From IMG/VR virus record IMGVR_UViG_2724679537_000002, positions 5,485-69,484 of that record: a stretch of DNA of 64,000 bases. One strand, 5' to 3'. Source of the DNA: a virus. Its lineage: Duplodnaviria > Caudoviricetes. Shown here piece after piece: positions 43,347 to 59,797 of this stretch; the stretch's first letter is position 1; the number at the start of each line of letters is the position of its first letter. Made by a program: the position numbers and the translations under genes. A model generated the notes under the pieces. It searched no databases. It saw nothing but the letters and a program-made list of their open reading frames with translations, and was not told the DNA's origin.

Positions 43347-44002
43347 GCCGCCACCTCCAGCCCATAGGCTTCCATCCACACGTCGGCGTGATACGCCTTG
43401 ACGGTTCCGTAGTTGGCGTCGAACACGTCGATGGCAGGAATGCCCAGGTCTTGAGATGCGGACTTCAGTAGGCGCCAGTTGTACTTCTGGCCATGAGTCA
43501 GCATCGACATGCGCTTGATAGTGCAGTAATCCTTGGAGCGATCCAGATCGCGCTCCAGCTTTGCGGCACGGCGAGATGCGGCGCTGGCGGTCGCCATGGC
43601 CGTGGCTTCTCGCCGACTGCCAATCTCTGCCTTGGTGGCAATGGCGGCCTGCTCGGCCTTTTTGGCTTCGATCCACGCCTCGGCAGCAGCAATCGGATCG
43701 GAGAAGTCGGGAAGCGATGGCTTGGCGGCCTGCTCCTCAAGCTCTTGCCAGCGATCGACAAGGCGCGCCGTGAACTCAGGCGACAGCTGTGCCACGATCA
43801 CATAGCTATCTCGCTTGCCAACGCGGTAAACGGTCGCCGGACGCCCGCCAGTGGACTTCTCCCCCACTGGGGTAAAAGTGATAAGGCCGCGCTCGGCCAG
43901 CCTTTCGATGGATTGCTTCACCTTGTCGTGGCGAGACTCCACCAGCTCGGCAATATCCCTGCTCGACATCGTGAGCGCCGGCATCTCCATGGGCATGCTC
44001 AT
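43343..44002 (-). CDS. Rha family regulator/antirepressor
   Basis: TMSSRDIAELVESRHDKVKQSIERL...VAQLSPEFTARLVDRWQELE. Confidence 0.88.
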   Translation of the reverse strand: MSMPMEMPALTMSSRDIAELVESRHDKVKQSIERLAERGLITFTPVGEKSTGGRPATVYRVGKRDSYVIVAQLSPEFTARLVDRWQELEEQAAKPSLPDFSDPIAAAEAWIEAKKAEQAAIATKAEIGSRREATAMATASAASRRAAKLERDLDRSKDYCTIKRMSMLTHGQKYNWRLLKSASQDLGIPAIDVFDANYGTVKAYHADVWMEAYGLEVAA

Positions 44003-44301
44003 ACGTTGCCTCCCGCCTTGCGGCACTGAGTTTCCAGACGGCGCAACGCATTTCGCTCAACGCGGCGAGCCTCGACGAAAGCTCTGTAGGCGTCGTCAGT
44101 GGCGTTGAAGAACTCGGGGTCTTCCATGGCATCACGCATGGTTCGCCCGTGGCTGTTCTCCCTCAGCCAGCGGTTGCGGATCTCGGCGTAGGCCTGACGG
44201 GAGCGCTTGCGCTCCTGCATGGCGCGGTGATGCTCGACCGCCGCTTGACCGGTCTCTGCCAGGGCGATCATCAACTGGACGTTTATCGGTTTGTCGTTCA
44301 T
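43999..44301 (-). CDS. Hypothetical protein
   Basis: ~100 aa from MNDKPINVQ, GGAG RBS. Confidence 0.65.
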   Translation of the reverse strand: MNDKPINVQLMIALAETGQAAVEHHRAMQERKRSRQAYAEIRNRWLRENSHGRTMRDAMEDPEFFNATDDAYRAFVEARRVERNALRRLETQCRKAGGNV

Positions 44302-44374
44302 AATCATCTCCATACATGAAGTGACATCAACGCCCCGCGGTGGCAGCCGATCGGGGCGTTGTTGTGTCCGGGGG

Positions 44375-44620
44375 TTACCCGGCGTTTTGCACATCGGAAA
44401 CCTCAACCGTCTCCCCGGCCTCAAGCCGAGAGAGCTCCGACGTGCTGATGCCCGCCAGGTCGGCGAGCACTCGGCGGTAATGTTGGGCACGGCGCTTGGG
44501 CTGCGCGGGAAGCCCCTTGGTGCGCCAGTGCCAAGGGGTGGCGTGGTGGACGTCACAAGCAGCAGCCAGACGGCCATTGCCCACCACATCGATCAATTCC
44601 GATACGCTGGAAACAATCAC
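44375..44620 (-). CDS. Small putative DNA-binding protein
   Basis: 81 aa; LAAACDV...W.W..KGLP Cro-like pattern. Confidence 0.5.
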   Translation of the reverse strand: MIVSSVSELIDVVGNGRLAAACDVHHATPWHWRTKGLPAQPKRRAQHYRRVLADLAGISTSELSRLEAGETVEVSDVQNAG

Positions 44621-44623
44621 GGG

Positions 44624-45247
44624 TCACCCTCCGCTCTTGGCCACCGCCAGTCGAACGCCGGGGTTGCGACCCAGCACTTTTCGTTCGATCAGCGAGCGCG
44701 TGCTCATCAGCGCGACGATGGCGTCGTCAATTTCGGCCAGCGCCTCGTCGGCCATGGGCAGGTCTGCCGGGCTCAGCTTGTTGTCGTGAAGCATCCGCGA
44801 CATGACGGCCATCACGTCGCCGGTTTCTCGGCTCACCTCGCCAAGTGCGGCAAACCCGCAGGAAATCTCATCCCCGCTCTCGGGTCGCTTTACCCCCATG
44901 AACCCGTGGCGGCGCGTCAGGCTGACGCGAGCAAAGTCGTCACCGAATACCTCAAGCGCTGCACACCAGGGCTCTTCCAGCCAGGCCGGGAACTCTACGG
45001 CGCCGCTGGCCCAGCGCTGCACGCGCTTGGCCCAGCTCATCACCGCGTGGTCGTACTCGTCCCCTACCGTGGTGAAGCCATCCAGGTCGGGCAGGTGCAG
45101 GTCAGCCGCCTTGGCCGGGCAGCACGCCATAACCTGGCGATTCAGTTCGCGGGCGAAGCGCTCGCAGGCGATGCCGCGCTGTTCACGCAGGCGACCAAGG
45201 GCGTCGCGCAGTAGAGCGTCACGGCTGGGGTGTCGGGTGTAGGACAT
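44624..45247 (-). CDS. CII-like regulatory protein
   Basis: 207 aa directly after cro; C-terminal EVSRETGDV...DNKLSPAD. Confidence 0.6.
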   Translation of the reverse strand: MSYTRHPSRDALLRDALGRLREQRGIACERFARELNRQVMACCPAKAADLHLPDLDGFTTVGDEYDHAVMSWAKRVQRWASGAVEFPAWLEEPWCAALEVFGDDFARVSLTRRHGFMGVKRPESGDEISCGFAALGEVSRETGDVMAVMSRMLHDNKLSPADLPMADEALAEIDDAIVALMSTRSLIERKVLGRNPGVRLAVAKSGG

Positions 45248-45280
45248 GGCAGGAGCTCCCTTCTCTGGATAGGGTGAAAG

Positions 45281-45478
45281 TTAGGCGGCGCGCGACTTCA
45301 GTTCGGCATGCATCTCATCGATAGCCCTGCCGGTGGAGTACAGCGGATTGGCGATAGCCCCAGACCTGATGCGATAGATCGTTGAGGCGTCGCATCCAGC
45401 ACGCTCAGCGATCGCCTTGTACGTAACGCCGGAAGCAAGAAGAGCCTCCAGCTTTTCTGCGAGTTCTGTGCCGTGCAT
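45281..45478 (-). CDS. cro: Cro-like repressor
   Basis: 65 aa HTH (TYKAIAERAGCDASTIYRIRSG), divergent from cI. Confidence 0.88.
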   Translation of the reverse strand: MHGTELAEKLEALLASGVTYKAIAERAGCDASTIYRIRSGAIANPLYSTGRAIDEMHAELKSRAA

Positions 45479-45508
45479 GGCTGTAACCTCGGAAGACGTT
45501 TCTATGTC

Positions 45509-45593
45509 ACAGGATATGCATCAATGCATAATTGTCAACGTGAAATGCATTTGCCCTATGCATCTGGTCGGGCAATCATTGCATCCATGCAAA
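45509..45593. promoter_or_regulatory. OR/PR region: TTGACA-N16-TATCCT (minus) with operators TATGCAT-NN-ATGCATA
   Basis: -35 at 45533-45538, -10 at 45511-45516; palindrome at 45515-45530, degenerate copy at 45578-45593. Confidence 0.75.
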
Positions 45594-46270
45594 AAGAGAA
45601 AACGAAAGACGTCTTGGCACGACTGATCGGGGCGTCGGGAAAAAGGCCGACTGAGGTTGCTCGCGAAAGCGGCGTGGCCCAGTCGACGCTGTCCAGAATC
45701 CTGCAAGGGAAAATTGAGAGCCCAACGGATAGGCAGTTGCAGAAGCTCGCTGAATATTTTGGCGTGACCACAGACCAGCTCCGTGGCCGACAGCCTGTTG
45801 ATCTCGCCGACCTGTTCTCCCTTCGGACTCACGACCTGCCTAAGTCAAAAGACGTAGCCCCCGCCCCTCAGGCCACCGGCATGTGCCCAGAAATCAGCTG
45901 GGTGCAGGCCGGTGCCTGGACGGAGGTCTGCCACGTTGAGCGCGACCCGGACGCCATCACCTGGCACCCTCGCCCTGCCGGCGCTTCGGAGCAGACCTTC
46001 GTGCTCAGGGTGGTCGGCGAATCCATGGTGCCCGAGTATCTGCCGGGCACGCTGATTTATGTGGACCCGGAGCGCGCGCCCGAGAACGGCAAGGACGTGG
46101 TGGCCGTCATGACCGAAACCGGTGAAGCCACGTTCAAGCGGCTGATCGAGGAGCCGGGACATGGCCGCATGCTCAAAGCGCTGAACCCGGCCTGGCACGA
46201 GCCCTACATCAAGATCAACGGCAACTGCCGCGTGGTGGGCGTGGTAGTCGCTGACATGCGATTGCGCTGA
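45587..46270 (+). CDS. cI: CI repressor (HTH plus S24 peptidase)
   Basis: EVARESGVAQSTLSRIL; ISWVQAG cleavage site; VVGESM; ATFKRL. Confidence 0.95.
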   Translation: MQKEKTKDVLARLIGASGKRPTEVARESGVAQSTLSRILQGKIESPTDRQLQKLAEYFGVTTDQLRGRQPVDLADLFSLRTHDLPKSKDVAPAPQATGMCPEISWVQAGAWTEVCHVERDPDAITWHPRPAGASEQTFVLRVVGESMVPEYLPGTLIYVDPERAPENGKDVVAVMTETGEATFKRLIEEPGHGRMLKALNPAWHEPYIKINGNCRVVGVVVADMRLR

Positions 46271-46280
46271 AGGAGTTCAC

Positions 46281-47138
46281 ATGGATGTCGAGCAGTTCAA
46301 GATACTATTTGGGGATGCGCAGACACTCCCGAAGGATATAGAAGCTATCCGCCAATTATTTTCCGATAAGGGCATTCCTTGTCTTGAGGTGTCGAAAACG
46401 CCACAGCTCAATGCGCACAGCCTTATCCATCCAGCGACTGATGCTGGGCAAACTATTATTGAGCGCCTGGAAGGATCGCCAGCGCAGAACATCACTCTTG
46501 TTGTTATCGAGAAGACCGAGCTTTGTCCAGATAAATACGAAAGGACGGCCATCGGCTATAACCCACTCCACCACTTCAGCTTTCTGTTTGGCGCTGATAC
46601 GCCCGAGGAAAACGCTCGCAAAGAGCACAAGGCGTTGACCAACAAGCCGATGGGGATAACTGTCTACCTGTTCGCCGCGAATGGGCTGTGCTTCGCTTAC
46701 AAGCGTGCTTCGTGGCAATCTCTCGTGTTGGACCAAACCGATGAAGACCCCTTCATCGACGATGAATACGATGAATACGATGACCCTCTTTACGACGAAG
46801 CCGAGGAAGCAGCTTACCAGGAGCGCCAAGAGAAGGAGGCTAAGCTGGGGCAAGAGCTGGCCCACGCCCCTGGCTGGGGGTTATGCAGCAATCACCAGCA
46901 GCGCCTTTATTTCGCAAACAAGTTCTTTGCTGATCGCGATAATGTTGAGCAAGGCCATATATACGGCGCTGTTGAAAGGGCGAAACTCATCTTCGACATG
47001 GAGATTCTTCCTGAAAAGGTCGCCGCTCTCCACAAGGATGGCAAGACCCCGAAAGAGATCGCGGCTGAGACCGGATGCAGTCAAGCCAAGGCGAAGCGAA
47101 TTATTGCTCAGCTGGTTGTTTCGCAGGAGGCTCAATGA
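46281..47138 (+). CDS. Accessory protein co-transcribed with cI
   Basis: 285 aa, AAGGAG RBS, visibly lower GC, acidic linker, C-terminal HTH-like segment. Confidence 0.85.
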   Translation: MDVEQFKILFGDAQTLPKDIEAIRQLFSDKGIPCLEVSKTPQLNAHSLIHPATDAGQTIIERLEGSPAQNITLVVIEKTELCPDKYERTAIGYNPLHHFSFLFGADTPEENARKEHKALTNKPMGITVYLFAANGLCFAYKRASWQSLVLDQTDEDPFIDDEYDEYDDPLYDEAEEAAYQERQEKEAKLGQELAHAPGWGLCSNHQQRLYFANKFFADRDNVEQGHIYGAVERAKLIFDMEILPEKVAALHKDGKTPKEIAAETGCSQAKAKRIIAQLVVSQEAQ

Positions 47139-47228
47139 CCGAAGACTACGAGAAGCGCATTGCCAAACTTGAGTCCGCCATGCGCTTCCTGCCCGCCTAA
47201 CGCCCAGAAAACCCGCCTCGACCCACCA

Positions 47229-47253
47229 AGACCCGCCGCCCGGCGGGTTTTTT
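47229..47253 (+). terminator. Rho-independent terminator after cI operon
   Basis: ACCCGCC-GCCC-GGCGGGT followed by T-run. Confidence 0.8.
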
Positions 47254-47285
47254 GTTGCCTGCAAGCTACTGACATGGCGAGAAAA

Positions 47286-47348
47286 TATGCATGAATGCAA
47301 AATTATCTGCACGAATGCATTGACAGGATATGCATCAATGCATAATCT
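47286..47348 (+). promoter_or_regulatory. OL/PL region: TTGACA promoter with three operator copies
   Basis: TTGACA 47320-47325; operators at 47286, 47306, 47329; 24 bp identical to 45509-45532. Confidence 0.8.
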
Positions 47349-47385
47349 TCATTTCAACAGCACGGCACACCGCCCACTGGATCAC

Positions 47386-47397
47386 CGCTCTTTCACA
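47386..47397 (+). promoter_or_regulatory. boxA antitermination element
   Basis: CGCTCTTTCACA, one mismatch to consensus CGCTCTTTAACA, just downstream of PL. Confidence 0.7.
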
Positions 47398-47813
47398 ATC
47401 TGCGATCCCCTCCCCCTGGGGCCACAAGGGGGCACCACCCGAGAAACCGGGCAGGTGGGCACGGCCTCACCCGCATGAGGAACGGCATTCCAACAGCATT
47501 GGCTCTGTCGTCGCGGGGCGCTCCCTAAGAGAGGTGGGGGCGCGGCCTGGCAGCCGCCGGCGCGACCGGCAGCCGTGTCAGCTGGCCCTGAGCATATCAG
47601 GGTCATCGAGAAGCGCCTTGGCGCTACAGGTCTCTGACCCTCCCGCCGTTGTGGCGTCAGGGTGCTTCTCGATGCAGTGAAAGATACGCCCCAAAGCGGG
47701 TGCTCCCGTATGCCTTATCGGTGGGGGTTAATGGAACGAAAAGATAGGGCCGCTGCATCACCCGGCCCACCAGGGCGTTATCTGGCGGGCATCACTTCAG
47801 TTCCCTGCACATT

Positions 47814-47838
47814 GCCCGGCCTCCCGTCGGGCTTTTTT
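47814..47838 (+). terminator. tL1-like terminator
   Basis: GCCCGGC-CTCCC-GTCGGGC-TTTTTT. Confidence 0.8.
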
Positions 47839-47891
47839 ACGGACACCTGGAGCCTGGTATGACACCAGTCACGAATCGAGAGGAAGTCGTC

Positions 47892-48125
47892 ATGATCCCT
47901 ATTCATCAGGGCAAGGTGGTGCACCTTGTCAATCGCAGAACCCGAGTCGTCGACCTGGTCCGCGAACAGGGTCGCGCCCTGGTGTGGCGGCGCAAGGCCA
48001 TCAGCCGCCGGGCGATCGAAGACGGGCCGGCCAATACGACGGAAGCGGCCAACGCTCGCCGAGAGGCCGAGTACGTATCCCGGCGCAACGGACTTAAGCC
48101 CGCCCTGCTCCAGATCTGGAAGTAG
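47892..48125 (+). CDS. Hypothetical basic protein, first ORF of the early operon
   Basis: 77 aa, GAGG RBS. Confidence 0.65.
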   Translation: MIPIHQGKVVHLVNRRTRVVDLVREQGRALVWRRKAISRRAIEDGPANTTEAANARREAEYVSRRNGLKPALLQIWK

Positions 48126-48152
48126 CGCCCCGCGCGTTAAAGGAGGCTGATC

Positions 48153-48431
48153 ATGATGCCCACCCGTATCGCCGGCATCCCCTGCTTGGTGGATGTCACC
48201 AGCTACACCCCGGCCGACCCCGGCAGCTTCTTCGAGCCGCCCAGCGGGCCGGAAATCGAGTACGAGGTCTACGACCGTCGCGGCTACAAGGCGGGCTGGC
48301 TACTGGCCAAGCTCACCGACGCCGACGACGACGCCATCCTGGAGCAGTACGAAGCCAGCCTGCGCGAGATCCGAAGCCAGGCGCGCATCGATGCCTACAT
48401 CGACAGCCTGGAAGCCCGCGCCTGGACATGA
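48153..48431 (+). CDS. Hypothetical phage protein
   Basis: 92 aa, AAGGAGG RBS. Confidence 0.8.
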   Translation: MMPTRIAGIPCLVDVTSYTPADPGSFFEPPSGPEIEYEVYDRRGYKAGWLLAKLTDADDDAILEQYEASLREIRSQARIDAYIDSLEARAWT

Positions 48432-48516
48432 AAAAGCCCCACCCCAGTAGGCGCTGGAGTGAGGCCCGTTGCAGTGACCGACAACCGTATCGCATCACCC
48501 GAATGAGGATAGCACT

Positions 48517-49614
48517 ATGAGCATGACCATTGAACAGGCCAAACACGAACTGATCACCAACCATCGCGTCGCCACCCTGGATATGCCCGAGGAGGTGTGG
48601 CTGCAGCTGCGCGGGCTCGGCATCGGGGCCAGCGAGGCCGCGGCAGCCGTCGGGGCTAGCGAGCACCGCACCCCGTTCGATATCGCCGAGCGCAAGCTGG
48701 GCCTAGTCAGCGACGACGCGGACGCCAACTACCGCCGCCGCCAGAAGATGGCCATGGGCCACGTCATGGAGCCGGTGACCGCTTCCCGCTTCGCGGAGTT
48801 CACCGGGCTCAACGTCCAGAACTTCAACTGCATGCTGGCCCACCCCGAGCACCCGTTCATGCTGGCCAACATCGACCGCCGCATCGTCGGCGTCACCGAT
48901 GCGCAGTCGGCCTGGCTCGAGCTGGTCATGGGCCAGACCGTGAAGGGCCCGGGCGTGGCCGAGCTCAAGAACGTCGAGTTCGCGCAGGGCTGGGGCAGGC
49001 CGGACAACGTGCACACCACCGGCGGGCTGTGCACCACAGGCGAGGTGCCGGAGGACTACTTCATTCAGGTGCAGCACCAACTGGCCGTCACCGGCTACGA
49101 GTGGGGCTTCCTGGTGGTGACTATCGCCGGTTGGGAGACTCGCTGGTACCCCATCCTGCGCGACGACGAGCTGATCGACGACCTGATCGCCCTGGAGGGC
49201 GAGCTGTGGGCCACCATCCAGCGCGGCGAGATGCCGGAGATTGATGTTGAGCACCCCAAGGCCATCGAGCTGCTCAAGCGCCTGCACCCGGGCACCGACG
49301 GCAGCATGGTCGACCTATCCGCGCTCGAGCATTGGCGCAAGGTCGAGCAACAGGCCAAGGAGGAGATCAAGGCCCTGGAGACCACCGCCAAGGTGGCCCG
49401 CGCCCACATCCTCGAGGCCATGGGCGATGCTGCGGTGGCCACCTTCGGTGACGACCAGGTGATGCGCCGCAAGGTGACCAAGCGCAAGGCCTACACCGTC
49501 GAGGTCGGCGAGAGCGAGTACGTCGACATCCGCTACGGGAAGATGAACAAGGCCGAGAAGGACCAGCTGGCCGCACAGGCCGATGATGTCGAACAACAAG
49601 GAGAAGCCGCATGA
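48517..49614 (+). CDS. YqaJ/lambda-exonuclease family recombinase exonuclease
   Basis: GIGASEAAA, GHVMEP, MLANIDR, ELKN, YFIQVQHQLAVTG. Confidence 0.92.
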   Translation: MSMTIEQAKHELITNHRVATLDMPEEVWLQLRGLGIGASEAAAAVGASEHRTPFDIAERKLGLVSDDADANYRRRQKMAMGHVMEPVTASRFAEFTGLNVQNFNCMLAHPEHPFMLANIDRRIVGVTDAQSAWLELVMGQTVKGPGVAELKNVEFAQGWGRPDNVHTTGGLCTTGEVPEDYFIQVQHQLAVTGYEWGFLVVTIAGWETRWYPILRDDELIDDLIALEGELWATIQRGEMPEIDVEHPKAIELLKRLHPGTDGSMVDLSALEHWRKVEQQAKEEIKALETTAKVARAHILEAMGDAAVATFGDDQVMRRKVTKRKAYTVEVGESEYVDIRYGKMNKAEKDQLAAQADDVEQQGEAA

Positions 49615-50666
49615 CTACTGCACCCCTCAACGCACAGCAGTTCCAAGCCCCCGCCGAGAGCCAGGCGGCGGCGCCGTCGATCCAGACGCAGGAGGAGATG
49701 CAGAACCTGCTGTTCAACCACAACGCCATGAGCCAGCTCTACAACCTGGCTCAGGTGATGGCCAAGGGGCAGTCGACGGTGCCCCGCCACCTTCAGGGCA
49801 ACGCCGGGGACTGCATGGCGGTGGTGATGCAGGCCGCGCAGTGGCGCATGAACCCCTTCGCCGTCGCGCAGAAGACCCACCTGGTCAACGGCACGCTGGG
49901 CTACGAGGCTCAACTGGTCAACGCTGTGATCAACACCATGGCACCCACCACCGGGCGGCTGCAGTACGAGTGGTTCGGCGAATGGACGAAGATCATCGGC
50001 AAGTTCGTCGAGAAGCAGGGGCAGAAAGGCACCTACAAGGCGCCGGGCTGGACCTCGAAAGACGAGGAAGGGCTGGGCGTTCGCGTGTGGGCCACGCTCA
50101 AGGGCGAAGACGAGCCCCGTGTACTGGAGATCCTGCTGACCCAGGCCCAAACCCGCAACTCCACTCTGTGGGCCAGCGACCCCAAGCAGCAGCTCGCCTA
50201 CCTGGCCATCAAGCGCTGGGCGCGCCTGTACTGCCCCGACGTGATCCTGGGCGTCTACACCCCCGACGAGGTGGACGGCTACGGCCAACAGGCCGGCGAG
50301 CGTGACGTGACGCCGCGCCAAGCAGCGCAAGGACCGGGCTCTCTGCCCAGTAATGCCCAAGGCAGGGTCAAGGCCAAGCTCTCTCAGAAGCTCCAGTCGA
50401 AGGCGCAGCAAGCGCGGCATCAGGAGGCACCGCCGGCCAGCGACCCCGCCGAGGCGCCGACGGGTGAGCCCGAGGATGCCGCCCCCGGCGGCGAGATCAC
50501 CTGCGCTTACGTCTGCGAGCAGATCAAGAAGGCGTACAGCCCGGACGAGCTGGCCGAAGCCGCCGATATGGCCCGCCACCTGCCGGAAGGCGACCAAGGC
50601 GTAGCCCGGGAGGCCTACAAGGCTCGCCTGGCCACGCTCAAGCAGCAAGCTGACGGCGGCCAGTAA
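49611..50666 (+). CDS. recT: RecT-family single-strand annealing protein
   Basis: VPRHLQGNAGDC...NPFAVAQKTHLVNGTLGYEAQL...WARLYCPDVILGVY. Confidence 0.9.
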   Translation: MTTAPLNAQQFQAPAESQAAAPSIQTQEEMQNLLFNHNAMSQLYNLAQVMAKGQSTVPRHLQGNAGDCMAVVMQAAQWRMNPFAVAQKTHLVNGTLGYEAQLVNAVINTMAPTTGRLQYEWFGEWTKIIGKFVEKQGQKGTYKAPGWTSKDEEGLGVRVWATLKGEDEPRVLEILLTQAQTRNSTLWASDPKQQLAYLAIKRWARLYCPDVILGVYTPDEVDGYGQQAGERDVTPRQAAQGPGSLPSNAQGRVKAKLSQKLQSKAQQARHQEAPPASDPAEAPTGEPEDAAPGGEITCAYVCEQIKKAYSPDELAEAADMARHLPEGDQGVAREAYKARLATLKQQADGGQ

Positions 50667-50782
50667 GCCGCCACTCCTCGACCCCGCACGACGGGGCCTT
50701 CACCACCAGCCGGAAACACATGGCGCCAAGCCCGCTTGGGGCTGCCGCGCGCCCGTACCCCGGCGCAATAGGAGCCACGACG

Positions 50783-51367
50783 ATGAAAACCGTCACCCTG
50801 AAACTGACCGGCATTTCGCCGCTTCTCATGCACAGCGACCGCTATGCGAACCCGCTCGACCCCATGACCAAGGCCCATAAGGTGCTGACCGGAAAGCGCA
50901 AGAAGCTGGACGAGGATCACGAAGCCATCGCCAAGTCCGAATGGATGGGCGGCCTCTACCACGATAAGGACATGGGCCCTTATCTGCCGGGCCAGAACAT
51001 CAAGTCTGCCTTGGTGGGTGCTGCCAAGCTCAACCGCCTGGGCGCCGCCTTCAAGCGCGGCGTCATGGTGCTGGAAGAGCGCGTCAAGCTCGACTATCCC
51101 GGCCCGCGCGACCCGGAAAAGATGTTTGCCGAAAGAAAGTTCGTCGACTGCCGCTCGGTGGTAGTCAGCCAATCGAGGTTGATGCGCTATCGGCCCAAGA
51201 TTCATGACTGGTCGCTTCAGGTCGACGTGATGTTCAGCCCAGAGATGACCGAGCAAGACAGCATCGCGCGCGCTGCTGAGGACGCCGGCATGTTCGTCGG
51301 CCTGGGCGATTACCGTCCCGAGAAGGGCGGCACCTTTGGGCGCTTCAATGTGGAGGTTGTGCAGTGA
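50783..51367 (+). CDS. Stand-alone RAMP/Cas7-like protein
   Basis: 194 aa; N-terminal strand KLTGISPLLMH, PYLPGQNIKSAL, C-terminal Gly-rich loop VGLGDYRPEKGGTFGRF: RAMP (Csm3/Cmr4-type) motif order. Confidence 0.8.
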   Translation: MKTVTLKLTGISPLLMHSDRYANPLDPMTKAHKVLTGKRKKLDEDHEAIAKSEWMGGLYHDKDMGPYLPGQNIKSALVGAAKLNRLGAAFKRGVMVLEERVKLDYPGPRDPEKMFAERKFVDCRSVVVSQSRLMRYRPKIHDWSLQVDVMFSPEMTEQDSIARAAEDAGMFVGLGDYRPEKGGTFGRFNVEVVQ

Positions 51368-51834
51368 GCAAGGACACCACCTGGATGGAAGGCGCCATCG
51401 CCGCCTTCGACCGCGAAGGTTTCAAGGATGGCGACCTGATCAGTCACGAGTGGCTTGACTGGGCGCTGGATATGCCAGCGCCCGCCACCGTAGCCGAATA
51501 CGAGAAAGCGCGCTGGGAGGAGCGGAGCCGCCTCAAGAGCTTCTTCACCTACCTGATGGAGGAGCGCTGCATCGTGGTCGCCAACGTCTGGGGCGAGGGC
51601 TACCGAATCGTCCCGCCTGACGACCAGGCCGGCTTCGCCATCCACGCCCTGACCAGGGTAATCAACAAGAGCCTGAGCAAGACACAGCGCATCCTGGCGC
51701 ATGCCCGCTTCGACGAGATGAGCGACGAAGGCGCTCGCCGCCACGTCGACGCTCAGGCCCGGGTGGCGGGATTCCAGCAGCTGATGAATCGGCAGCAGAA
51801 GCGCCTCACCCTTCCCTTCCATCCCGCCGAATAG
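51364..51834 (+). CDS. Accessory protein coupled to the RAMP gene
   Basis: 156 aa, GTGA overlap, GGAGG RBS; NVWGEGYRIVPP. Confidence 0.8.
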   Translation: MSKDTTWMEGAIAAFDREGFKDGDLISHEWLDWALDMPAPATVAEYEKARWEERSRLKSFFTYLMEERCIVVANVWGEGYRIVPPDDQAGFAIHALTRVINKSLSKTQRILAHARFDEMSDEGARRHVDAQARVAGFQQLMNRQQKRLTLPFHPAE

Positions 51835-51841
51835 CGCGATT

Positions 51842-52184
51842 GGCTCAGCGCGCGGCATGCGATGGCATGGCTCGGTCCGGCCAGGCATCGCGTGGCAAGG
51901 GCTGCGTATGCAGCGGTCTGGCGGCTTGCGAGCCGCCCTTCCGGTGCAGATGCACCAAGGGCGCGGCCCGGCGCCGTCTGGCAAGGCAGGGCGGGGCACC
52001 CCAAGGGCTACAACGTAGCGGTCTGCCCTCTCGGCGAGAGGGCTTTCCGGTGCGAAAGCGCTACGTGGCTTTGCACGGCGGGGCATGGCGCGGCCCGGTA
52101 TGGCAAGGATTGGCACGGCACCCCAAGGGCTGCAACGCAGCGTGTAGCGCCTTCTTCGAGGGCGCTATGCCGTGCGCATGCACG
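51842..52184 (+). ncRNA. Array of three structured RNAs: (GGY-NN)n tract plus three-hairpin tail
   Basis: 5-nt periodic tracts at 51854-51898, 51960-51999, 52067-52121; each followed by AAGGGCT (51897, 52003, 52125) and covarying hairpins. Confidence 0.8.
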
Positions 52185-52210
52185 CACCTGAACACGAGAA
52201 AGGAGCCGAT

Positions 52211-52774
52211 ATGGCACGCGGAGTGAACAAGGTCATCCTCATTGGCAACCTGGGTCAGGATCCGGAGGTGCGCTTCATGCCCTCCGGCAACCCGGTCGCC
52301 AACCTACGGCTGGCCACTACCGACAGCTGGATGGACCGTCAGAGCGGGCAGCGACAGGAGCGCACCGAGTGGCACAGCGTCGTGCTGTTCAACAAGACGG
52401 CCGAAATCGCCCAGCAGTACCTGCGCAAGGGCTCCAAGGTCTACATCGAGGGCCGCCTGCAGACGCGCAAGTGGCAGGGGCAGGACGGCCAGGACCGCTA
52501 CAGCACCGAGATCGTCGCCAACGACATGCAGATGCTCGACTCCCGCGACGACCAGCAGGGGCAGTCGGCCGGCGGCTACGGCGGCCAGCCACAAGGCGAC
52601 TACGGCCAGGGCGGCCAGCAGCAGCGCAGGCAGCCGCCTCAGAGTCAGCCGCCCGGCTACGGCGCCCCGCCGCCCAGCCAGGCCCCGCAAGGCGGAGGCG
52701 GGGGCGGGGGCGGCTTCAGCGACTTCGACGACGAGATCCCGTTCGCCCGGTTCCCGAATATCGCCGGGGGCTGA
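52211..52774 (+). CDS. ssb: Single-stranded DNA-binding protein
   Basis: [21 protein letters not shown]...DFDDEIPF. Confidence 0.97.
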
Positions 52775-52799
52775 CCCGGGCAGCTATCAAGGAGGCAGC

Positions 52800-53897
52800 A
52801 TGCCAACGATTGATCGAAACGGCACCGTGAGCTTCGGCGATGCCAGCCTGAACGTCCTGAACGTCTGGGAGGAACCGGAGCGTCAGGGCCCGCTTCAGTG
52901 GCAGGCATGGGAGCGCCAGTTCAAGAAGGATGTCTTCCTTCGCATTGCCCAGCAGCTTCGCCGGATTGGCTGGCAGACGGAGGTGCCGGCGGACATGGTC
53001 GAGCGGTACGGCCGGCGCTTCGCCGAAGGTTACCGCTACTGCCGAAAGGGCGACCTACAGGGTCGACTCGAAGTCACCGGTCGCTGCATCAAGTTCGAGA
53101 TGTGGCAGGACGTCGCCAGCGTCGAGAATCCCAACGGCGGGCGCTACGACTTCGATAAAGAAAAGCGGATGCCCTATCTACTTTGGCTGGAGATGGAGCG
53201 CACCCGCCGCCGACTGCGCGCCTACCTATGCAACGTCTTCGCCGGCTACGAGTTCAACCACAAGCCGCGTGACGGGCGCACTGCGAAGCGCGGTCCCGGG
53301 GCGATGACAGCAATGGAGTGGGTCGAGGAATGCTGGCGTACCAGCTGGCATTTCAAGGGCGACACCAGCGCTTACGCGATCAGCGACGTCAACAGGAAGT
53401 CGGCCGATGGAAAGCTGATCGAGCACGGCCAGCGCGTCTACTTCGCGGATCGGAAGGGCCGCATGTGCGTCGGCACCGCCTACTACAACATCAACAACAT
53501 GTGGTGGGTGGTTACCGGCAAGTACGGCGTCACCAATGAGGCCAGTTTCGCTCTCTACGTCGACAGCCCGGGCGACCTTCGGCGAAAACGAAACGATGGC
53601 CTGAGCCGGAAGCGCCTTGAAAGCGAACTATCCCGGGCCGTCAAGGCGATGGACTTCCGACGCGCCGAGACTCTGAAAAACATCCTGTTCCCGCCCGAGG
53701 AACCGCTCTACCTCATCTGGCACAAGGGACACGACGCCTATCACCGCCCTGGCGCCTGCGGCTACACAACCGATGCAAACCAGGCTGGCAAGTTCACATG
53801 GGAGGAGCTGGGGCGCTTTCGCCCTACCGACGGCAGCATGGAAGATCATCTGAGCCTGATCGTGCCGCTGGCGGGCGAGCAAGCAAAGGCAGCATGA
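52800..53897 (+). CDS. Hypothetical phage protein
   Basis: 365 aa from ATG 52800, AAGGAGG RBS; NGGRYDFDK, AYYNINNMWWV. Confidence 0.8.
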   Translation: MPTIDRNGTVSFGDASLNVLNVWEEPERQGPLQWQAWERQFKKDVFLRIAQQLRRIGWQTEVPADMVERYGRRFAEGYRYCRKGDLQGRLEVTGRCIKFEMWQDVASVENPNGGRYDFDKEKRMPYLLWLEMERTRRRLRAYLCNVFAGYEFNHKPRDGRTAKRGPGAMTAMEWVEECWRTSWHFKGDTSAYAISDVNRKSADGKLIEHGQRVYFADRKGRMCVGTAYYNINNMWWVVTGKYGVTNEASFALYVDSPGDLRRKRNDGLSRKRLESELSRAVKAMDFRRAETLKNILFPPEEPLYLIWHKGHDAYHRPGACGYTTDANQAGKFTWEELGRFRPTDGSMEDHLSLIVPLAGEQAKAA

Positions 53898-53923
53898 CCG
53901 TTCCCCGCACGCGCGGGGCTCTA

Positions 53924-54064
53924 CTTGCCTGCCGCACAGGCAGCTCAGAAAACGTGGCCAACGATCCCGGCGCCGCCGTGGTGCTTGCCTGCCGCACAGG
54001 CAGCTCAGAAAACTACAGACCCGCCCTGATCGAGCGGGAACTCCTTGCCTGCCGCACAGGCAGC
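53924..54064 (+). CRISPR. Type I-F-like CRISPR mini-array (2 full repeats, 1 truncated, 2 spacers), no cas genes in window
   Basis: CTTGCCTGCCGCACAGGCAGCTCAGAAA at 53924 and 53984, first 21 nt again at 54044; 32-nt spacers. Confidence 0.92.
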
Positions 54065-54104
54065 CCTATCATCCACCCTGCCCCGCCCTGCCGCGGGGCT
54101 TCCT

Positions 54105-54146
54105 GTTTCTGGAGGACACCATGCAGTTTCTGGAGGACACCATGCA
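54105..54146 (+). repeat. 21-bp tandem duplication containing RBS and start codon
   Basis: GTTTCTGGAGGACACCATGCA twice. Confidence 0.9.
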
Positions 54147-54435
54147 GTGCGATTGCCAAACCAAGGTCGCCGAGAAGCTGGCCGAGCACGTCAAGGCGAA
54201 GCTGCCCGAGGGCTTCAAGGACTTCGATGCCAAGCTCCAGGGCTATGGCTTCACCCTGACCGGCAATCAGATGTCGTCGCCGCTCATGATCGGCTACCAG
54301 GGCGAGGTCTGGGTCCCGAAGAAGGATCCGACCAAGGGCATGAAGCGCCAGAAGATCGACACCTTCGTCACCGCCAACCTCTGCCCCTTCTGCGGCAAGG
54401 CGGCCAAGCCCGACGACGACAAGGAGGCGGCATGA
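54142..54435 (+). CDS. Hypothetical Zn-binding protein
   Basis: MQCDC...CPFCG. Confidence 0.8.
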   Translation: MQCDCQTKVAEKLAEHVKAKLPEGFKDFDAKLQGYGFTLTGNQMSSPLMIGYQGEVWVPKKDPTKGMKRQKIDTFVTANLCPFCGKAAKPDDDKEAA

Positions 54436-54704
54436 GCCAGACACACACCATCGTCGTGAGATTCCCCGCCGGGATTGTGCCGCGATACAGCGCAGCCACC
54501 GAATTTCAGGGCGGCCAGGTGGTGGCCGTGGACTTCGACGGTAACCGATTGCACGTCTGTCAGCAGCTGGAGGAGGCGCTGGAAGCATGCCTTGAGCTGA
54601 TCGATACCATCTCGCCTCTGGAGGGTGATGTGGTTCGCAAGACGCGCGCGGCCCTGGAGCTTGCCCGGAGCGCCCCGGCCAAAGCCAGAGGAGATAGCTC
54701 ATGA
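54432..54704 (+). CDS. Hypothetical protein
   Basis: 90 aa, ATGA-coupled. Confidence 0.7.
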   Translation: MSQTHTIVVRFPAGIVPRYSAATEFQGGQVVAVDFDGNRLHVCQQLEEALEACLELIDTISPLEGDVVRKTRAALELARSAPAKARGDSS

Positions 54705-54895
54705 CACCCCACCCTGACAGCCCCAACGCCAAGTGGGCGCGCCACGGCTACCAGGTCGAGCGCATCCCGCGCCGCGGGAGCGGCGGCCATCACCGCATCA
54801 TCCGCGACCCCGAGGGGCGCGTTGTGCTTCAGGACGCCGGCCACGCCGGCGAACTGGAGTGGATCAAGGCCAACCTGGAGGGGCATGACCCATGA
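54701..54895 (+). CDS. Hypothetical protein
   Basis: 64 aa, ATGA-coupled. Confidence 0.65.
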   Translation: MTPHPDSPNAKWARHGYQVERIPRRGSGGHHRIIRDPEGRVVLQDAGHAGELEWIKANLEGHDP

Positions 54896-56670
54896 ACTAC
54901 GGCAGTGTTTGCAGTGGAATCGAAGCGGCCTCAGTAGCCTGGGAGCCGTTAGGCATGACGCCCGCATGGTTCTCTGAAGTCGAAGCGTTTCCCAGCGCCG
55001 TGCTAGCGCACCACTGGCCTGACGTGCCGAACCTTGGCGACATGACCAAGATAAGCTGCCGCATCCTCTTGGGCGAGATTGAAGCGCCTGATGTGCTGGT
55101 AGGCGGCACGCCCTGCCAAGCGTTCAGCGTCGCGGGAATGCGGGGGGGAATGGCCGATGCGCGCGGCCAGTTAACAATGAAATACGTGGAGCTAGCCAAT
55201 GCAATCGACACTGTTCGAACTCGGGCCGGAAATGCCGAAGCCGTCATCGTCTGGGAAAACGTCCCCGGCGTCCTCAGCGACAAGCAAAACGCCTTCGGAT
55301 GCTTTCTTGGCGCGCTCGCTGGGGAAGACCGCGAATTGCAGCCTTCAGGGAAAAAATGGACGAACGCTGGTTGTGTGTATGGACCCCAAAGAGCAGTCGC
55401 ATGGCGGGTTCTTGACGCCCAATATTTCGGAGTGGCCCAACGACGCCGCCGTGTGTTCGTTGTCGCAAGTGCTCGAACAGACTTCGATCCCGCAGCGGTA
55501 CTTTTTGAGTCCGAAGGCGTGCGCCGGGATACTCCGCCGCGCAGAGAAAAGGGGCAAGGCTTTACCCACGATGCTGCTCCATGCCTTACAAGCTCAGGCC
55601 GCGGCGTTGAACGACCTGGAGAAACCAGAGGGCAAGACCCCGTAGTTGCGGTTCCGCTGCTGGAACCCGGCGCCCGTACTGGGAAAAGCACCACCGACCC
55701 TCGCGTAGGAATGGGTATCGGTACCGACGGTGACCCCATGTACACCTTGCAGGCTGGAAAGCAGCATGGCGTGGCAGTCGCCTTCGGACAAAACCGTCAA
55801 TCAGGGCCAGCAGAAACAAGCCACGCCCTCAACGCTCATAGCGGCCCGCACGGTCGCCTTGATTTTGAGAGCGAGACGTTCCTGGTTCAGTCAGTTACTG
55901 GAAATATCTCGCACACCCTAAACACCGCAAACAACGGAAAAGGCTGCAGCGAAGATGGCACCGGGCGCGGTGTGCCCACGATTGCCTTTAGCTCCAAAGA
56001 CTATGGCGGCGATGCGCTATCAGAATGCTCGCCAACACTACGCGCAGGCGGCCACTCTGACAGCCATGCCAATGCGGGCGTGCCGCCAGCGGTGACGGTG
56101 GCTCTGCGTGGCCGCGAGGGTGGCGCGACTGCCGAGCTAGGCGGCGAGGTTGCCACAGCGCTTCGGGCATCCACCGGTGGGGGTGATAAGCCGCACGTAC
56201 TGACAGTTCACGGCACCCAAGACCCTTGTGTCAGCGATAGCACGGCGTTCGCTTTGGGCCGCAATCATGGCGGGGAAAATACGGTTCTTTCTGGTGTTGA
56301 TACGTACAATGGAAGCGTTACTGGTGACGTTGCTCATACGCTGCGCGATGGTAACTCAGAAGGCGCGCCCGCAGTAGTATCGAATCTCTCCGTCCGCCGC
56401 CTAACCCCACCCGAATGCGAGAAACTGCAAGGCTTTCCGCCCGGCCACACGCTAATACCCACTGCCAAGCGCAACTGGCACCGCGAGTTGGAGGAAATGC
56501 GCGACTATTTCCGCCGCACGCACCCTGACGTCACCGACGACGAGATTATCCGGCTGGCAGCCGATGGCCCGCGCTACAAGGCTATCGGCAACTCGATGGC
56601 CGTGCCCGTCATGCGCTGGATCGGACAGCGCATTCAGCAGGTCGACTCACTACCCACGGCCGCCCACTGA
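54892..56670 (+). CDS. DNA (cytosine-5) methyltransferase with long variable region
   Basis: SVCSGIEA, GGTPCQAFS, WENVPG, QRRRRVF, RRLTPPECEKLQGFP, YKAIGNS. Confidence 0.93.
   Translation: MNYGSVCSGIEAASVAWEPLGMTPAWFSEVEAFPSAVLAHHWPDVPNLGDMTKISCRILLGEIEAPDVLVGGTPCQAFSVAGMRGGMADARGQLTMKYVELANAIDTVRTRAGNAEAVIVWENVPGVLSDKQNAFGCFLGALAGEDRELQPSGKKWTNAGCVYGPQRAVAWRVLDAQYFGVAQRRRRVFVVASARTDFDPAAVLFESEGVRRDTPPRREKGQGFTHDAAPCLTSSGRGVERPGETRGQDPVVAVPLLEPGARTGKSTTDPRVGMGIGTDGDPMYTLQAGKQHGVAVAFGQNRQSGPAETSHALNAHSGPHGRLDFESETFLVQSVTGNISHTLNTANNGKGCSEDGTGRGVPTIAFSSKDYGGDALSECSPTLRAGGHSDSHANAGVPPAVTVALRGREGGATAELGGEVATALRASTGGGDKPHVLTVHGTQDPCVSDSTAFALGRNHGGENTVLSGVDTYNGSVTGDVAHTLRDGNSEGAPAVVSNLSVRRLTPPECEKLQGFPPGHTLIPTAKRNWHRELEEMRDYFRRTHPDVTDDEIIRLAADGPRYKAIGNSMAVPVMRWIGQRIQQVDSLPTAAH
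55199..55645 (+). CDS. Nested +1-frame ORF, candidate second (beta) MTase polypeptide
   Basis: 148 aa ending SLSQVLEQTSIPQRYFLSPKACAGILRRAEKRGKALP. Confidence 0.6.
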   Translation: MQSTLFELGPEMPKPSSSGKTSPASSATSKTPSDAFLARSLGKTANCSLQGKNGRTLVVCMDPKEQSHGGFLTPNISEWPNDAAVCSLSQVLEQTSIPQRYFLSPKACAGILRRAEKRGKALPTMLLHALQAQAAALNDLEKPEGKTP

Positions 56671-56696
56671 GGCGGCCTTCCTACGGAGGCTGCCCC

Positions 56697-57539
56697 ATGC
56701 AATGCCCTGTCATGCGTTACCACGGCGGCAAGTGGCGCATCGCCAGCTGGGTGATATCGCACTTCCCGCGCCACCAGGTCTACGTCGAACCCTTCGGCGG
56801 CGCCGCTGGCGTGCTGATGCAGAAGCCGTCGGTATCGGCCGAGGTCTACAACGACCTCGATGGCGAGATCGTCAACGTGTTCCGCGTGTTGCGTGACCCA
56901 GCGAACGCCGAGCGCCTGGCGGAAGCCTGCCGCTTCACACCCTACGCCCGCGCCGAGTTCGACCTTTCGCAAGAGCCGGTCGACGACCCCATCGAGCAGG
57001 CCCGGCGCACACTGCTGCGCGCATGGGCCAGCTTCGGCTCGGCCGGCGCCACGCGCGGCAACTCGGGGATGCGCACCTTCACTCGACCGGATGGCGTCTA
57101 TCTTGGCGTGGCGCACGCCTGGGCCCGCATTGCTGACGCGATACCCGAGTTCGCCAACCGCTTTCGCAACGTGGTGATCGAAAGCCGTCCGGCCATCGAT
57201 GTCATGGCGCAGCACGACAGCCGGGAAACGCTGCATTACGTCGACCCGCCCTATCTGCCGGAGACGCGCAGCCAGGGAAGCAGCCGCTACTACCGTCACG
57301 AGATGACTGTCGAGGAGCACGAGGCACTGCTGGATACCGTCAGGCACCTGCAGGGCTTCGTCGTGATCAGCGGCTACGACTCCACGCTCTACAACAACCG
57401 CCTACCCGGCTGGATGCGCGTGACGCTGCCCACGTCCGGATCCAGCCGCTTCGGCAGTGTGAAGCGTACTGAATGCCTGTGGCTGTCGCCGAGGGCGGCA
57501 GACCAGCAACGCCAGCGCGACATGTTCGCCACCGCCTAA
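56697..57539 (+). CDS. DNA adenine methyltransferase (Dam/D12 family)
   Basis: RYHGGKW, YVEPFGGAA, NDLD, YVDPPY. Confidence 0.93.
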   Translation: MQCPVMRYHGGKWRIASWVISHFPRHQVYVEPFGGAAGVLMQKPSVSAEVYNDLDGEIVNVFRVLRDPANAERLAEACRFTPYARAEFDLSQEPVDDPIEQARRTLLRAWASFGSAGATRGNSGMRTFTRPDGVYLGVAHAWARIADAIPEFANRFRNVVIESRPAIDVMAQHDSRETLHYVDPPYLPETRSQGSSRYYRHEMTVEEHEALLDTVRHLQGFVVISGYDSTLYNNRLPGWMRVTLPTSGSSRFGSVKRTECLWLSPRAADQQRQRDMFATA

Positions 57540-57584
57540 CCCGGCGCGGACAGCGTGCCGCGCCCTTCAACCTGGAGAATCGCC

Positions 57585-58742
57585 ATGTGGTTCAAAAACC
57601 TTCGTCTGTATCGCCTGCCCGCCGCCGGCAGCATCGCCGTTGAAGCCCTGTCCGAGGCCATGAGCAGCTTCGCCACCCGCGACATGGGTGGCCATGAGGC
57701 CAAGCACCTTGGCTGGGCGCCGCCGGCCGGCCGCAAGAGCGACACCCTAGTGCACGCCATCCAAGGCCAGTACCTGCTGACCATGCTTCGCCAGGAACGG
57801 ATCCTACCCTCCTCCGTGGTCAAGGAGGAGGTGGAGGCCCGCTGCGAGGAGATCGAGGCCGTGCGCGGCGGCCCGGTACCGCGCGCGGAGAAGATGGGCA
57901 TCAAGGAGCAGGTCTACGAGGAGTTCCTGCCCCGCGCCTTCGTGCGCAGCCATCGGGTCGACGTCTGGTGGGACATGGCAGGCGGCATGATCGCCGTCAA
58001 CACTTCGTCGGCGAAGCGTGCCGAGGAGGCGCTGGACCTGTTGCGCGCCACGCTGGGCAGCCTGAAGGTGGTGCCGGTTGCCACCCACTCGCTGCCCATG
58101 CGGGTCATGACGCACTGGCTGCAAGACCCAAGCCTGCGCCCGTCCTGGCTGGAGGTCGGCGACAGCGTGCAGCTCCGCGAGAAAGGCGACGACGGCAAGG
58201 TGACGGCCAAGAACGTCGACCTCGACACCGACGACATGCAACAGCTTCTGGAATCCGGCCGCCAGGTCGCCCAGCTGAGCATCACCCTCGACGAGCGGGT
58301 ATCGCTGACGCTGACCGACGACCTGACGCTCAAGGGGCTGCGCTTCTCCGACGCCCTGCTGGACGAGGCCAGCCAGACCGACGATGGCGACGACGCCATC
58401 ATCCGAATGGAAACCGACTTCATCCTGATGGCCAACGCTCTGCGTGACGTCATCAAGCTGCTGTTGACCGGGCTGGGCGGCGAGGCCGTTCCCGAACTCA
58501 AGAGCCTGGAGGAGGCAGCACCGACGCCCGCCTCGCCCGGCGCCGATGATCCCGACCCGCTGCTGGGCGAGGTTCGCGGCTTCGTGATCGAGAGTCGCAA
58601 GGCGTCGATATCGGCCGTGCAGCGTCACTTCAAGATTGGCTACAACCGCGCGGCGCGCCTCATCGAGGACCTGGAGCGCCAGGGCGTGGTTTCCCCCATG
58701 GACAACAGCGGTTCCCGCAAGGTGCTCAAGGAGGCGGCATGA
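57585..58742 (+). CDS. rdgC: RdgC recombination-associated protein fused to FtsK-gamma domain
   Basis: MWFKNLRLYRL, ERILPSSVV, LPRAF; C-terminal KASISAVQRHFKIGYNRAARLIEDLERQGVVS. Confidence 0.9.
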   Translation: MWFKNLRLYRLPAAGSIAVEALSEAMSSFATRDMGGHEAKHLGWAPPAGRKSDTLVHAIQGQYLLTMLRQERILPSSVVKEEVEARCEEIEAVRGGPVPRAEKMGIKEQVYEEFLPRAFVRSHRVDVWWDMAGGMIAVNTSSAKRAEEALDLLRATLGSLKVVPVATHSLPMRVMTHWLQDPSLRPSWLEVGDSVQLREKGDDGKVTAKNVDLDTDDMQQLLESGRQVAQLSITLDERVSLTLTDDLTLKGLRFSDALLDEASQTDDGDDAIIRMETDFILMANALRDVIKLLLTGLGGEAVPELKSLEEAAPTPASPGADDPDPLLGEVRGFVIESRKASISAVQRHFKIGYNRAARLIEDLERQGVVSPMDNSGSRKVLKEAA

Positions 58743-59008
58743 CATCACCGACCCATACCCCTGCCCCAGTCGCGACGACGGACTGCCCGTTCTGCGAGCA
58801 GGTCCTGCAGCGCAACCAGGAGCTGGAAGACGACAAGGCGCGACTCGCCGAACAGCTCGAGGACCAGGAGGAGGCGTTGCGCCTCCTCGATGAAGTCATG
58901 CGCCGCGCCGGTATGCACAAGAAGCCCACCACCTTCCTGGAAGCCGTGGCCGCCGTCTGCGAGGACAACCACGAAATTCGCCGGCAGCTGGCCAACCATC
59001 GCGCCTGA
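58739..59008 (+). CDS. Hypothetical protein
   Basis: 89 aa, CPFC plus coiled coil. Confidence 0.65.
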   Translation: MTSPTHTPAPVATTDCPFCEQVLQRNQELEDDKARLAEQLEDQEEALRLLDEVMRRAGMHKKPTTFLEAVAAVCEDNHEIRRQLANHRA

Positions 59009-59032
59009 CGCCCGCCCACCACCGATGGAGCC

Positions 59033-59797
59033 ATGATGAATACACACGCCCACGCCAGCGAGGGCGCGCCCGCGCGCGCCTTGCTCGACCCCTACGACGA
59101 GGCTATCCGCCTGGCCCTGGACAACAAAGACATGCGACAGGAGCTGGCGGCCGCCCAGCGCCGCGCCGAGAGCGCCGCCGCCAGCCGTGACAAGGCCAAG
59201 GCCGACGCCGACCAGCAGCGAGAACGCGCCGACCGCCTGGCCGCCGAGAAGGCAGCCGGCAAGAAGGAGTTGACTCAAGTTCGCCACCAGCTTGGCCAGC
59301 GAGTCCAGCAGCTGGAGGCCGAGCTGGCCCGCAAGGAGAACGCGCCCGCCGAGAAGACCGGCGAGGATCCGGGGCCGCACGCCACGATCAAGAGCGACGA
59401 CGGTGCCGTGATCGTGCAACTGGCCTTCAATCAGGTGCACATCCACGAGCCCGACCGCTGGTACATGGTCAGCAGCAAGCCGCTCGACAAGGCGGAGAAG
59501 CACCGCATGATCTTCTGCGGGCTGATCGACGGCATCATGGCCGGCGAGCACGCCACCTTCATCAAGGGTGCCATCCACCGCTTGGCCGGCCACTGGCGCA
59601 AGGAGAACGGCTGCCAGCGCATCGAAGACCTCGACCTGCCGGGCCGTGTCGTCAACCAGCTCGAGGACGCCGGCTACGAGCTGCTGAGCGAGATCGACAC
59701 TGAGGGCAAGCGTAAGTCGCTCGCCGGCATCAAGGGCATCGGCCCGGCCACCATCCAGAAGATCGCGCGCGCCGTGCGCAAGGCAGGTGGCAAGTGA
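59033..59797 (+). CDS. Coiled-coil protein with C-terminal HhH (RNAP alpha-CTD-like) domain
   Basis: IEDLDLPGRVVNQLEDAGY...LAGIKGIGPATIQKI. Confidence 0.7.
   Translation: MMNTHAHASEGAPARALLDPYDEAIRLALDNKDMRQELAAAQRRAESAAASRDKAKADADQQRERADRLAAEKAAGKKELTQVRHQLGQRVQQLEAELARKENAPAEKTGEDPGPHATIKSDDGAVIVQLAFNQVHIHEPDRWYMVSSKPLDKAEKHRMIFCGLIDGIMAGEHATFIKGAIHRLAGHWRKENGCQRIEDLDLPGRVVNQLEDAGYELLSEIDTEGKRKSLAGIKGIGPATIQKIARAVRKAGGK

Follow-up and report, generated by a model that had tools for sequence, protein, structure and literature searches.

The stretch examined here (the window) comprises 64 kb of a 69,484-base IMG/VR provirus record, and at 50783-52187 it very probably carries a type II Viral Interference Programmable Repeat (VIPR) locus of a temperate provirus, consisting of vipr, a coupled vap1-like gene and an array of three guide RNAs (vrRNAs, 51854-52187) on one strand. 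VIPR was described in 2026 in three bioRxiv preprints (10.64898/2026.04.26.720920,.720927 and 10.64898/2026.10.15.759431), according to which it comprises a RAMP protein (Vipr), usually a vap gene, and vrRNAs built of 9-16 YNNGG repeats and an invariant tail. As the preprints describe it, each repeat is bound by a single protomer that sequesters GGY and leaves NN to pair with DNA, every third target base being skipped, and rival phages and satellites are silenced at the level of transcription; their type II examples are SUSP1 and a P. fulva prophage. We assign the locus to type II because every sequence-level defining feature of that type was found in it. It adds to an already published kind of system and is not a new kind, and by homology it is almost certainly functional. 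The initial annotation had pointed to a resemblance to VIPR, and this is borne out by full-length homology to the SUSP1 Vipr protein, by homology of the accessory gene, and by the two-part, repeat-plus-tail build of the RNAs.

The vipr gene (50783-51367, + strand) encodes a stand-alone, Cas7/Csm3-like RAMP of 194 amino acids, predicted to bind guide RNA. Its ATG is preceded at 8 nt by an AGGAG ribosome-binding site, and the three RAMP-like motifs quoted in the initial annotation are all present in its translation. The open reading frame (ORF) belongs to phrog_4652 (E 1e-63), and Pfam held no family matching it. A phmmer search against all PDB chains produced one real match, 36pp_D ('SUSP1 Vipr protein', E 3e-39), which aligned residues 1-193 with residues 1-190. 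An AlphaFold2 model built on an alignment of homologs reached a mean predicted local distance difference test score (pLDDT) of 93.4, and the best listed Foldseek matches of this model in the PDB were type III/type VII CRISPR effector chains or Csm3 (E 5e-6 to 1.5e-4, template modelling score 0.37-0.52, sequence identity 9-15%); they included 6ifn_E, the Cas7 query chain that was used by the VIPR authors according to their preprint. Since the matches listed include no Vipr entry (the PDB copy searched with Foldseek ends at 2026-04-08), the model confirms the RAMP fold proposed in the initial annotation independently of the SUSP1 sequence match.

Residues that handle nucleic acid in SUSP1 are largely kept. 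In the preprint account of the SUSP1 cryo-electron microscopy structure, G1 of the repeat is contacted by H17 and D177, G2 by R138 and W178, and Y3 by R179, while the DNA is contacted by K33 (target backbone) and by K82, G87 and R39 (non-target strand). Alignment places the G-loop GLGDYRP of the window's Vipr over GVGDWRP of SUSP1 Vipr, and shows H17, K33, R39, K82, G87, R137 (R138 in SUSP1), D176 (D177) and R178 (R179) to be kept, with W178 replaced by Tyr177. Across 24 Vipr homologs, four of these residues (K82, G87, R137 and R178) do not vary and three (H17, K33 and D176) hardly do; R39 and Y177 fall in neither group.

The accessory gene (51364-51834, +), a coupled ORF of 156 amino acids as initially annotated, starts at a GTG inside the end of vipr, the two genes sharing 4 nt (GTGA), an arrangement indicating translational coupling. 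It belongs to phrog_5926 (E 3.5e-25), as does the gene following vipr in Felixounavirus phage heid, in LESphi2 and in Medea1, and BLASTP aligned it with the heid gene at E 1e-14 (27% identity over 140 amino acids). On the basis of this synteny, and of the near-identity of heid Vipr to SUSP1 Vipr (430 bits), we infer through the heid gene (heid_98) that the accessory family corresponds to vap1 of the VIPR papers. Of 80 related viral loci, 75 have a coupled ORF of 141-249 amino acids after vipr, and two of the five loci lacking one (L063 and L067) end within about 300 nt past vipr. Vap matched no Pfam family and had no sequence relative in the PDB. Its AlphaFold2 model (pLDDT 94.1) has a small alpha/beta domain at the N terminus and ends in two long helices, with weak fold matches in the PDB (E 0.08 or worse), mostly to DNA-binding domains of transcription regulators, chiefly of the OmpR/PhoB type; the modelled protein is probably DNA-binding.

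Between the vap stop codon and the start of the following SSB gene lies a spacer of 376 nt (51835-52210) without a credible gene, in which three vrRNAs are laid out head to tail on the + strand, abutting one another and each measuring about 106-121 nt in total. vrRNA1 (51854-51959) consists of nine 5-nt units at 51854-51898 (NN = AT AT AT TC CC CA AT GT AA; a further unit at 51849 is doubtful) and a tail at 51897-51959. vrRNA2 (51960-52065) likewise has nine units, at 51960-52004 (NN = GC CC GC CT AA AG GG AC AA), and a tail at 52003-52065, and vrRNA3 (52067-52187) has twelve, at 52067-52126 (NN = TT AC GG AT GC CC AT AA TT AC AC AA), with a tail at 52125-52187. GGY is intact in 7/9, 7/9 and 9/12 of the units, respectively. 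The sequence given for the third unit in the initial annotation reads exactly as quoted there. That annotation had described about 340 nt of non-coding DNA made of three units with 5-nt periodicity; the three units stand, while the spacer is longer than stated and the periodicity is restricted to the 5' 45-60 nt of each vrRNA, the remainder being a 63-nt structured tail that starts at AAGGGCU and is entered in register by each GGY tract.

We scored GGY over runs of nine consecutive 5-nt units at every position on both strands of the whole window. Scores of at least 6 occurred at 16 start positions, all of them in three + strand clusters starting at 51844, 51950 and 52057, and the best score on the - strand was 5; within the 64 kb, GGY at a 5-nt period is confined to the three vrRNA tracts. 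Tandem Repeats Finder reported nothing at the array because the NN positions vary, and the 116-nt spacer upstream of vipr holds no GGY tract.

The same architecture recurs in relatives. A query of IMG/VR viral contigs with a Vipr alignment gave 80 loci at 46-71% identity (a single-protein query had given one locus in genome contigs and one in viral contigs). At a threshold of GGY in at least 6 of 8 units, 68 of these 80 loci carried at least one tract. The 180 tracts were all on the vipr strand: some precede vipr by 73-914 nt, and the others come after vap, 1031-1435 nt beyond the start of vipr. No tract turned up on the opposite strand of the 80 loci or in block-shuffled copies. Beyond this set, LESphi2 has three tracts and P. 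typographi six upstream of vipr, and Medea1 has one downstream. When 110 unique guides were anchored on the tail, an anchor that itself fixes the last AA and renders it uninformative, GG frequency was 0.85-0.98 across the nine tail-proximal units and the third base was mostly C or T, and NN entropy was 1.86-2.00 bits in the eight units above the anchoring one. Together with the homology of Vipr, the conserved GG and near-random NN support the proposal in the initial annotation of a lone RAMP working on a GGY-NN RNA with NN as the code, a mechanism that is here put forward by analogy with SUSP1.

The tails, too, appear to be under selection as RNA. An alignment of 42 tails supports a short hairpin (GCUR...YAGC) and a long one, with 94.7% of alignment cells paired, against 35-64% when partner columns were slid. 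Double-change cells numbered 119, whereas shuffles averaged 41, and 0/500 shuffles reached the observed value, so that both helices are backed by covariation. Taken singly, the three RNAs folded weakly better than shuffles (z -2.3, -1.7 and -0.5). The tail covariance model (R1) scored vrRNA1, vrRNA2 and vrRNA3 at 54.8, 65.9 and 51.3 bits, all three being training sequences, and found nothing else of note in the window; in the other loci it gave 177 matches across 76 loci, all on the vipr strand. Built from the window's clade, the model had no match in the SUSP1-type Felixounavirus locus of phage heid (L089), which, judged from sequence, divides vrRNA tails into at least two classes that differ between clades and are not bridged by one model. 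A pseudoknot is reported for the SUSP1 clade. Two sub-forms can also be seen within the alignment (A2, columns 21-23 and 44-46): an internal loop UCU/UUU in window tails 1 and 2, and a fully paired form in window tail 3 and several tails of L003. In some arrays lying upstream of vipr (L021:2464, L046:479 and L032:117), the tail of the last vrRNA is a short, single hairpin that leads straight into the vipr ribosome-binding site and start.

By homology to SUSP1 and the P. fulva prophage, the array would be transcribed and yield RNAs of about 105-120 nt. Vipr protomers would load one per pentamer, hold GGY and present NN, and the resulting filament would read double-stranded DNA in the pattern NN-x-NN-x, with one target base passed over at every unit. 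The structured tail would cap the 3' end. Transcription of the bound gene, which most probably belongs to a rival phage or another mobile element, would then be blocked, and Vap, if it is DNA-binding as its model suggests, may enhance silencing.

Several observations weigh against a working type II VIPR. SUSP1 K88 is Ala in the window's Vipr; 7 of the 30 units across the array are not GGY; and neither a sigma-70 promoter nor an intrinsic terminator was predicted in 50400-52400. The remaining points come from searches for targets, in which the NN-x-NN-x pattern specified 22 bases for vrRNA3 and 16 each for vrRNA1 and vrRNA2, and which across genomes were exact in IMG/VR and the JGI metagenomes and allowed up to 3 mismatches in Pseudomonas (one genome per species). 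For vrRNA3, the provirus's own record held 0 matches at up to 3 mismatches, and a set of 401 Pseudomonas genomes (the host probably belongs to another genus) held 2 at 3 mismatches against 2 for the control. Exact vrRNA3 matches numbered 0 in IMG/VR and 0 in the JGI metagenomes, and masking its two degenerate units (18 specified bases left) again gave 0 in IMG/VR. The exact matches of vrRNA1 and vrRNA2 look like chance. vrRNA1 had 33 in IMG/VR, 31 of them in loci with a G+C content of at most 0.45, one at 0.56 and one at 0.63. The last of these, a 16/16 match on a viral contig of 63% G+C (L103:12371-12393, - strand), falls in a DnaB-like helicase gene, within its N-terminal region; the codons there read MMISPQIV, and the bases that the code skips are wobble bases. 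The match extends to neither flanking unit, and we judged it a chance hit. The 2 exact vrRNA2 matches equal the number expected by chance from a rough composition estimate and were likewise rejected as targets.

In the provirus's own record vrRNA1 and vrRNA2 also had 0 matches at up to 3 mismatches (best within the window, 12/16), and there was no self-target at an NN match of at least 80% in the provirus; a VIPR preprint reports likewise for the systems it describes. Two further candidates, from a comparison of the guides with related vipr loci, were set aside. A 19/22 match of vrRNA3 in L087 and L088 was circular, those loci having been preselected by the same pattern, and without them 0 matches remained at 80% or above. 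A 14/16 match of vrRNA1 at a site shared by L048, L049, L062 and L080 fell within the null, given that 13/100 shuffled guides reached 14/16; this shared site is in frame and about 90 nt past vap (near 3645 in L048, L049 and L062, and near 3642 in L080). Overall, the absence of a target is weak evidence, because the searches demanded exact matches or used a probably wrong genus with one genome per species.

The missing targets and the degenerate units are what one would expect if the locus were VIPR by descent but no longer worked, its guides being targetless leftovers and its non-GGY units blocking filament assembly. We consider this unlikely. Both vipr and vap are intact ORFs, and the SUSP1 nucleic-acid contacts are kept except at W178 and K88; internal degeneracy is frequent in working vrRNAs according to a VIPR preprint, and the target searches were weak for the reasons just given. 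The three tails also score 51-66 bits, though they belong to the model's own training set, and near-identical copies of the locus occur in contigs of four sequencing runs from four studies.

A working system could still act in another way, with transcripts as its targets, as for a Cas7 backbone of type III, in place of double-stranded DNA. The nearest solved folds outside VIPR are indeed RNA-targeting subunits of the Csm3/Cmr4 type, and the SUSP1 cryo-electron microscopy preprint reports that Vipr-vrRNA can pair with single-stranded RNA. However, by the preprint account RNA targets in SUSP1 yield mostly incomplete filaments and no triplex, and silencing works with a target on either DNA strand; here K82 and R39, which clamp the non-target strand, are kept, and we regard action on transcripts as very unlikely. 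Least credible of all is that the periodic tracts are not guides at all and arose as chance G+C-rich or coding DNA, a notion that we give almost no weight. ORFs of 109-268 amino acids do span the array on both strands (e.g. 51840-52226, +, and 51310-52116, -), but a periodicity of 5 nt is incompatible with codons, the tracts recur in 68 of the 80 homologous loci and in no shuffled copy, and conserved GG with near-random NN, together with compensatory changes in the tails, indicate selection at the RNA level. A type II VIPR that silences through DNA is thus the reading that we retain.

The locus sits in the early recombination operon (exonuclease, RecT, VIPR, SSB) of a lambdoid-style temperate phage, a placement that follows from the gene order and from the CI-, CII- and O-like neighbours in a provirus record. 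Upstream of vipr lie genes for a YqaJ/RecE-like exonuclease (48517-49614, +; Pfam PF09588, E 2e-28) and RecT (49611-50666, +; PF03837, E 1e-42), both also assigned by PHROGs, and the SSB gene (52211-52774, +; PF00436, E 4e-42) begins 24 nt past the last vrRNA tail. Further upstream are a CI-like repressor gene on the same strand as vipr (45473-46270, +) and, on the opposite strand, a CII-like gene and a replication O-like gene; downstream of SSB come a phrog_7674 gene, two DNA methyltransferase genes and another exonuclease gene. The neighbouring methyltransferase genes (592 and 280 amino acids, 54892-57539) lie a few kb downstream of VIPR in the same operon direction, and at 54105-54148 a perfect 21-nt tandem duplication (2.1 copies) opens a small ORF. 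The initial annotation had stated that the window holds no other cas gene; this stands for the 15 annotated neighbouring ORFs that were scanned (42432-61658), which are phage recombination, regulation and methylase genes and include no cas gene. The 64-kb window also contained no CRISPR-like array and no match to any Rfam family, no tRNA was found, and GenBank held no close phage genome.

Among named proteins, RecT is closest to those of Halomonas/Vreelandella (72% and 68% identity) and Kushneria (61%), on which basis the host is probably a member of the Halomonadaceae. Contigs carrying the locus stem from marine and rock metagenomes. In an order-level genome sample RecT matched one genome (G410, 58% identity), and Vipr was not found among 38 genomes of that genome's family; a Vipr search of a 401-genome order sample had P. 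typographi as its only match. While the nearest named RecT is from Halomonas/Vreelandella and Kushneria, the nearest named Vipr is from Pseudomonas, and because the two differ in host, the VIPR module may have moved between phages of different hosts.

The four runs all consist of contigs, probably of DNA. Contigs from three of them (X2, X3 and X4) cover the stretch at 90-99% likeness, and the fourth (X1) contains pieces of it at 99% or above. Among the differences listed for the contigs of X2-X4, 10 of 13 array substitutions fall in 51954-51994, the guide of vrRNA2, and all 12 insertions in 51958-51979, one of them a whole GGCCG unit; none of the differences listed is in a tail. This pattern of variation fits guide turnover on a fixed scaffold. 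As the variants cluster in the vrRNA2 guide and none is listed in the tails, we raise the speculative, and on balance doubtful, idea that guides are swapped as cassettes through homologous recombination, with the conserved 63-nt tails on either side of every guide providing the homology; the array lies inside the phage's own exonuclease-RecT-SSB module, which gives this idea a context. In the sections consulted, the VIPR preprints offer no mechanism for the origin of new guides. If the tails did serve as recombination arms, VIPR would have a simple, Cas1-free route to guide turnover.

The locus contributes a type II VIPR with clear boundaries, carried by a temperate provirus, with a tail class distinct from that of the SUSP1 clade and an array placed after vap, inside a recombination module, unlike the placement in its Pseudomonas prophage relatives. 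Its three guides, so far without a match, are candidates for a pangenome search when genomes of the host can be had. What is known of the VIPR mechanism is unchanged by it.

Among known systems, the type III/VII Cas7 backbones (Csm3, Cmr4) have the same fold as the window's Vipr at a sequence identity of 9-15%. According to the preprints, Csm3 and Cmr4 resemble Vipr in placing one protomer per fixed RNA step and in having a base-flipping thumb, whereas VIPR differs from these backbones in an RNA step of 5 nt and not 6, in hiding 3 of 5 RNA bases, and in silencing DNA instead of cleaving RNA. What sets the locus apart from class 1 CRISPR-Cas is that the window has no CRISPR array and that the annotated neighbours scanned include no cas gene.

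The type II VIPR of SUSP1 (10.64898/2026.04.26.720920 and.720927; PDB 36pp) shares with the window a Vipr homologous over its full length (about 36% identity to the Felixounavirus copies), a homologous vap and GGY-NN guides, in the same order of vipr, vap and intergenic array, the SUSP1 array also being described as three vrRNAs. The two differ in that the window has no vrRNA upstream of vipr, in that the SUSP1 3' tail is of another class (the tail model is blank in the SUSP1-type locus L089), and in that SUSP1 is a lytic Felix O1-type phage and not a temperate provirus. The closest named Vipr proteins, at 70-73% identity, are those of the Pseudomonas prophage systems of LESphi2 and P. typographi (loci L001 and L003), which have the vap family and the AAGGGCU tail class in common with the window; however, their arrays (three and six vrRNAs) lie upstream of vipr and not after vap, and in LESphi2 VIPR adjoins cI, whereas here it stands between recT and ssb. 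The P. fulva prophage, too, is described with the order vrRNA1-3, vipr, vap1, as opposed to vipr, vap, array. In the placement of its array the window's locus follows the SUSP1 pattern, and in its protein and tail the Pseudomonas-type prophage clade.

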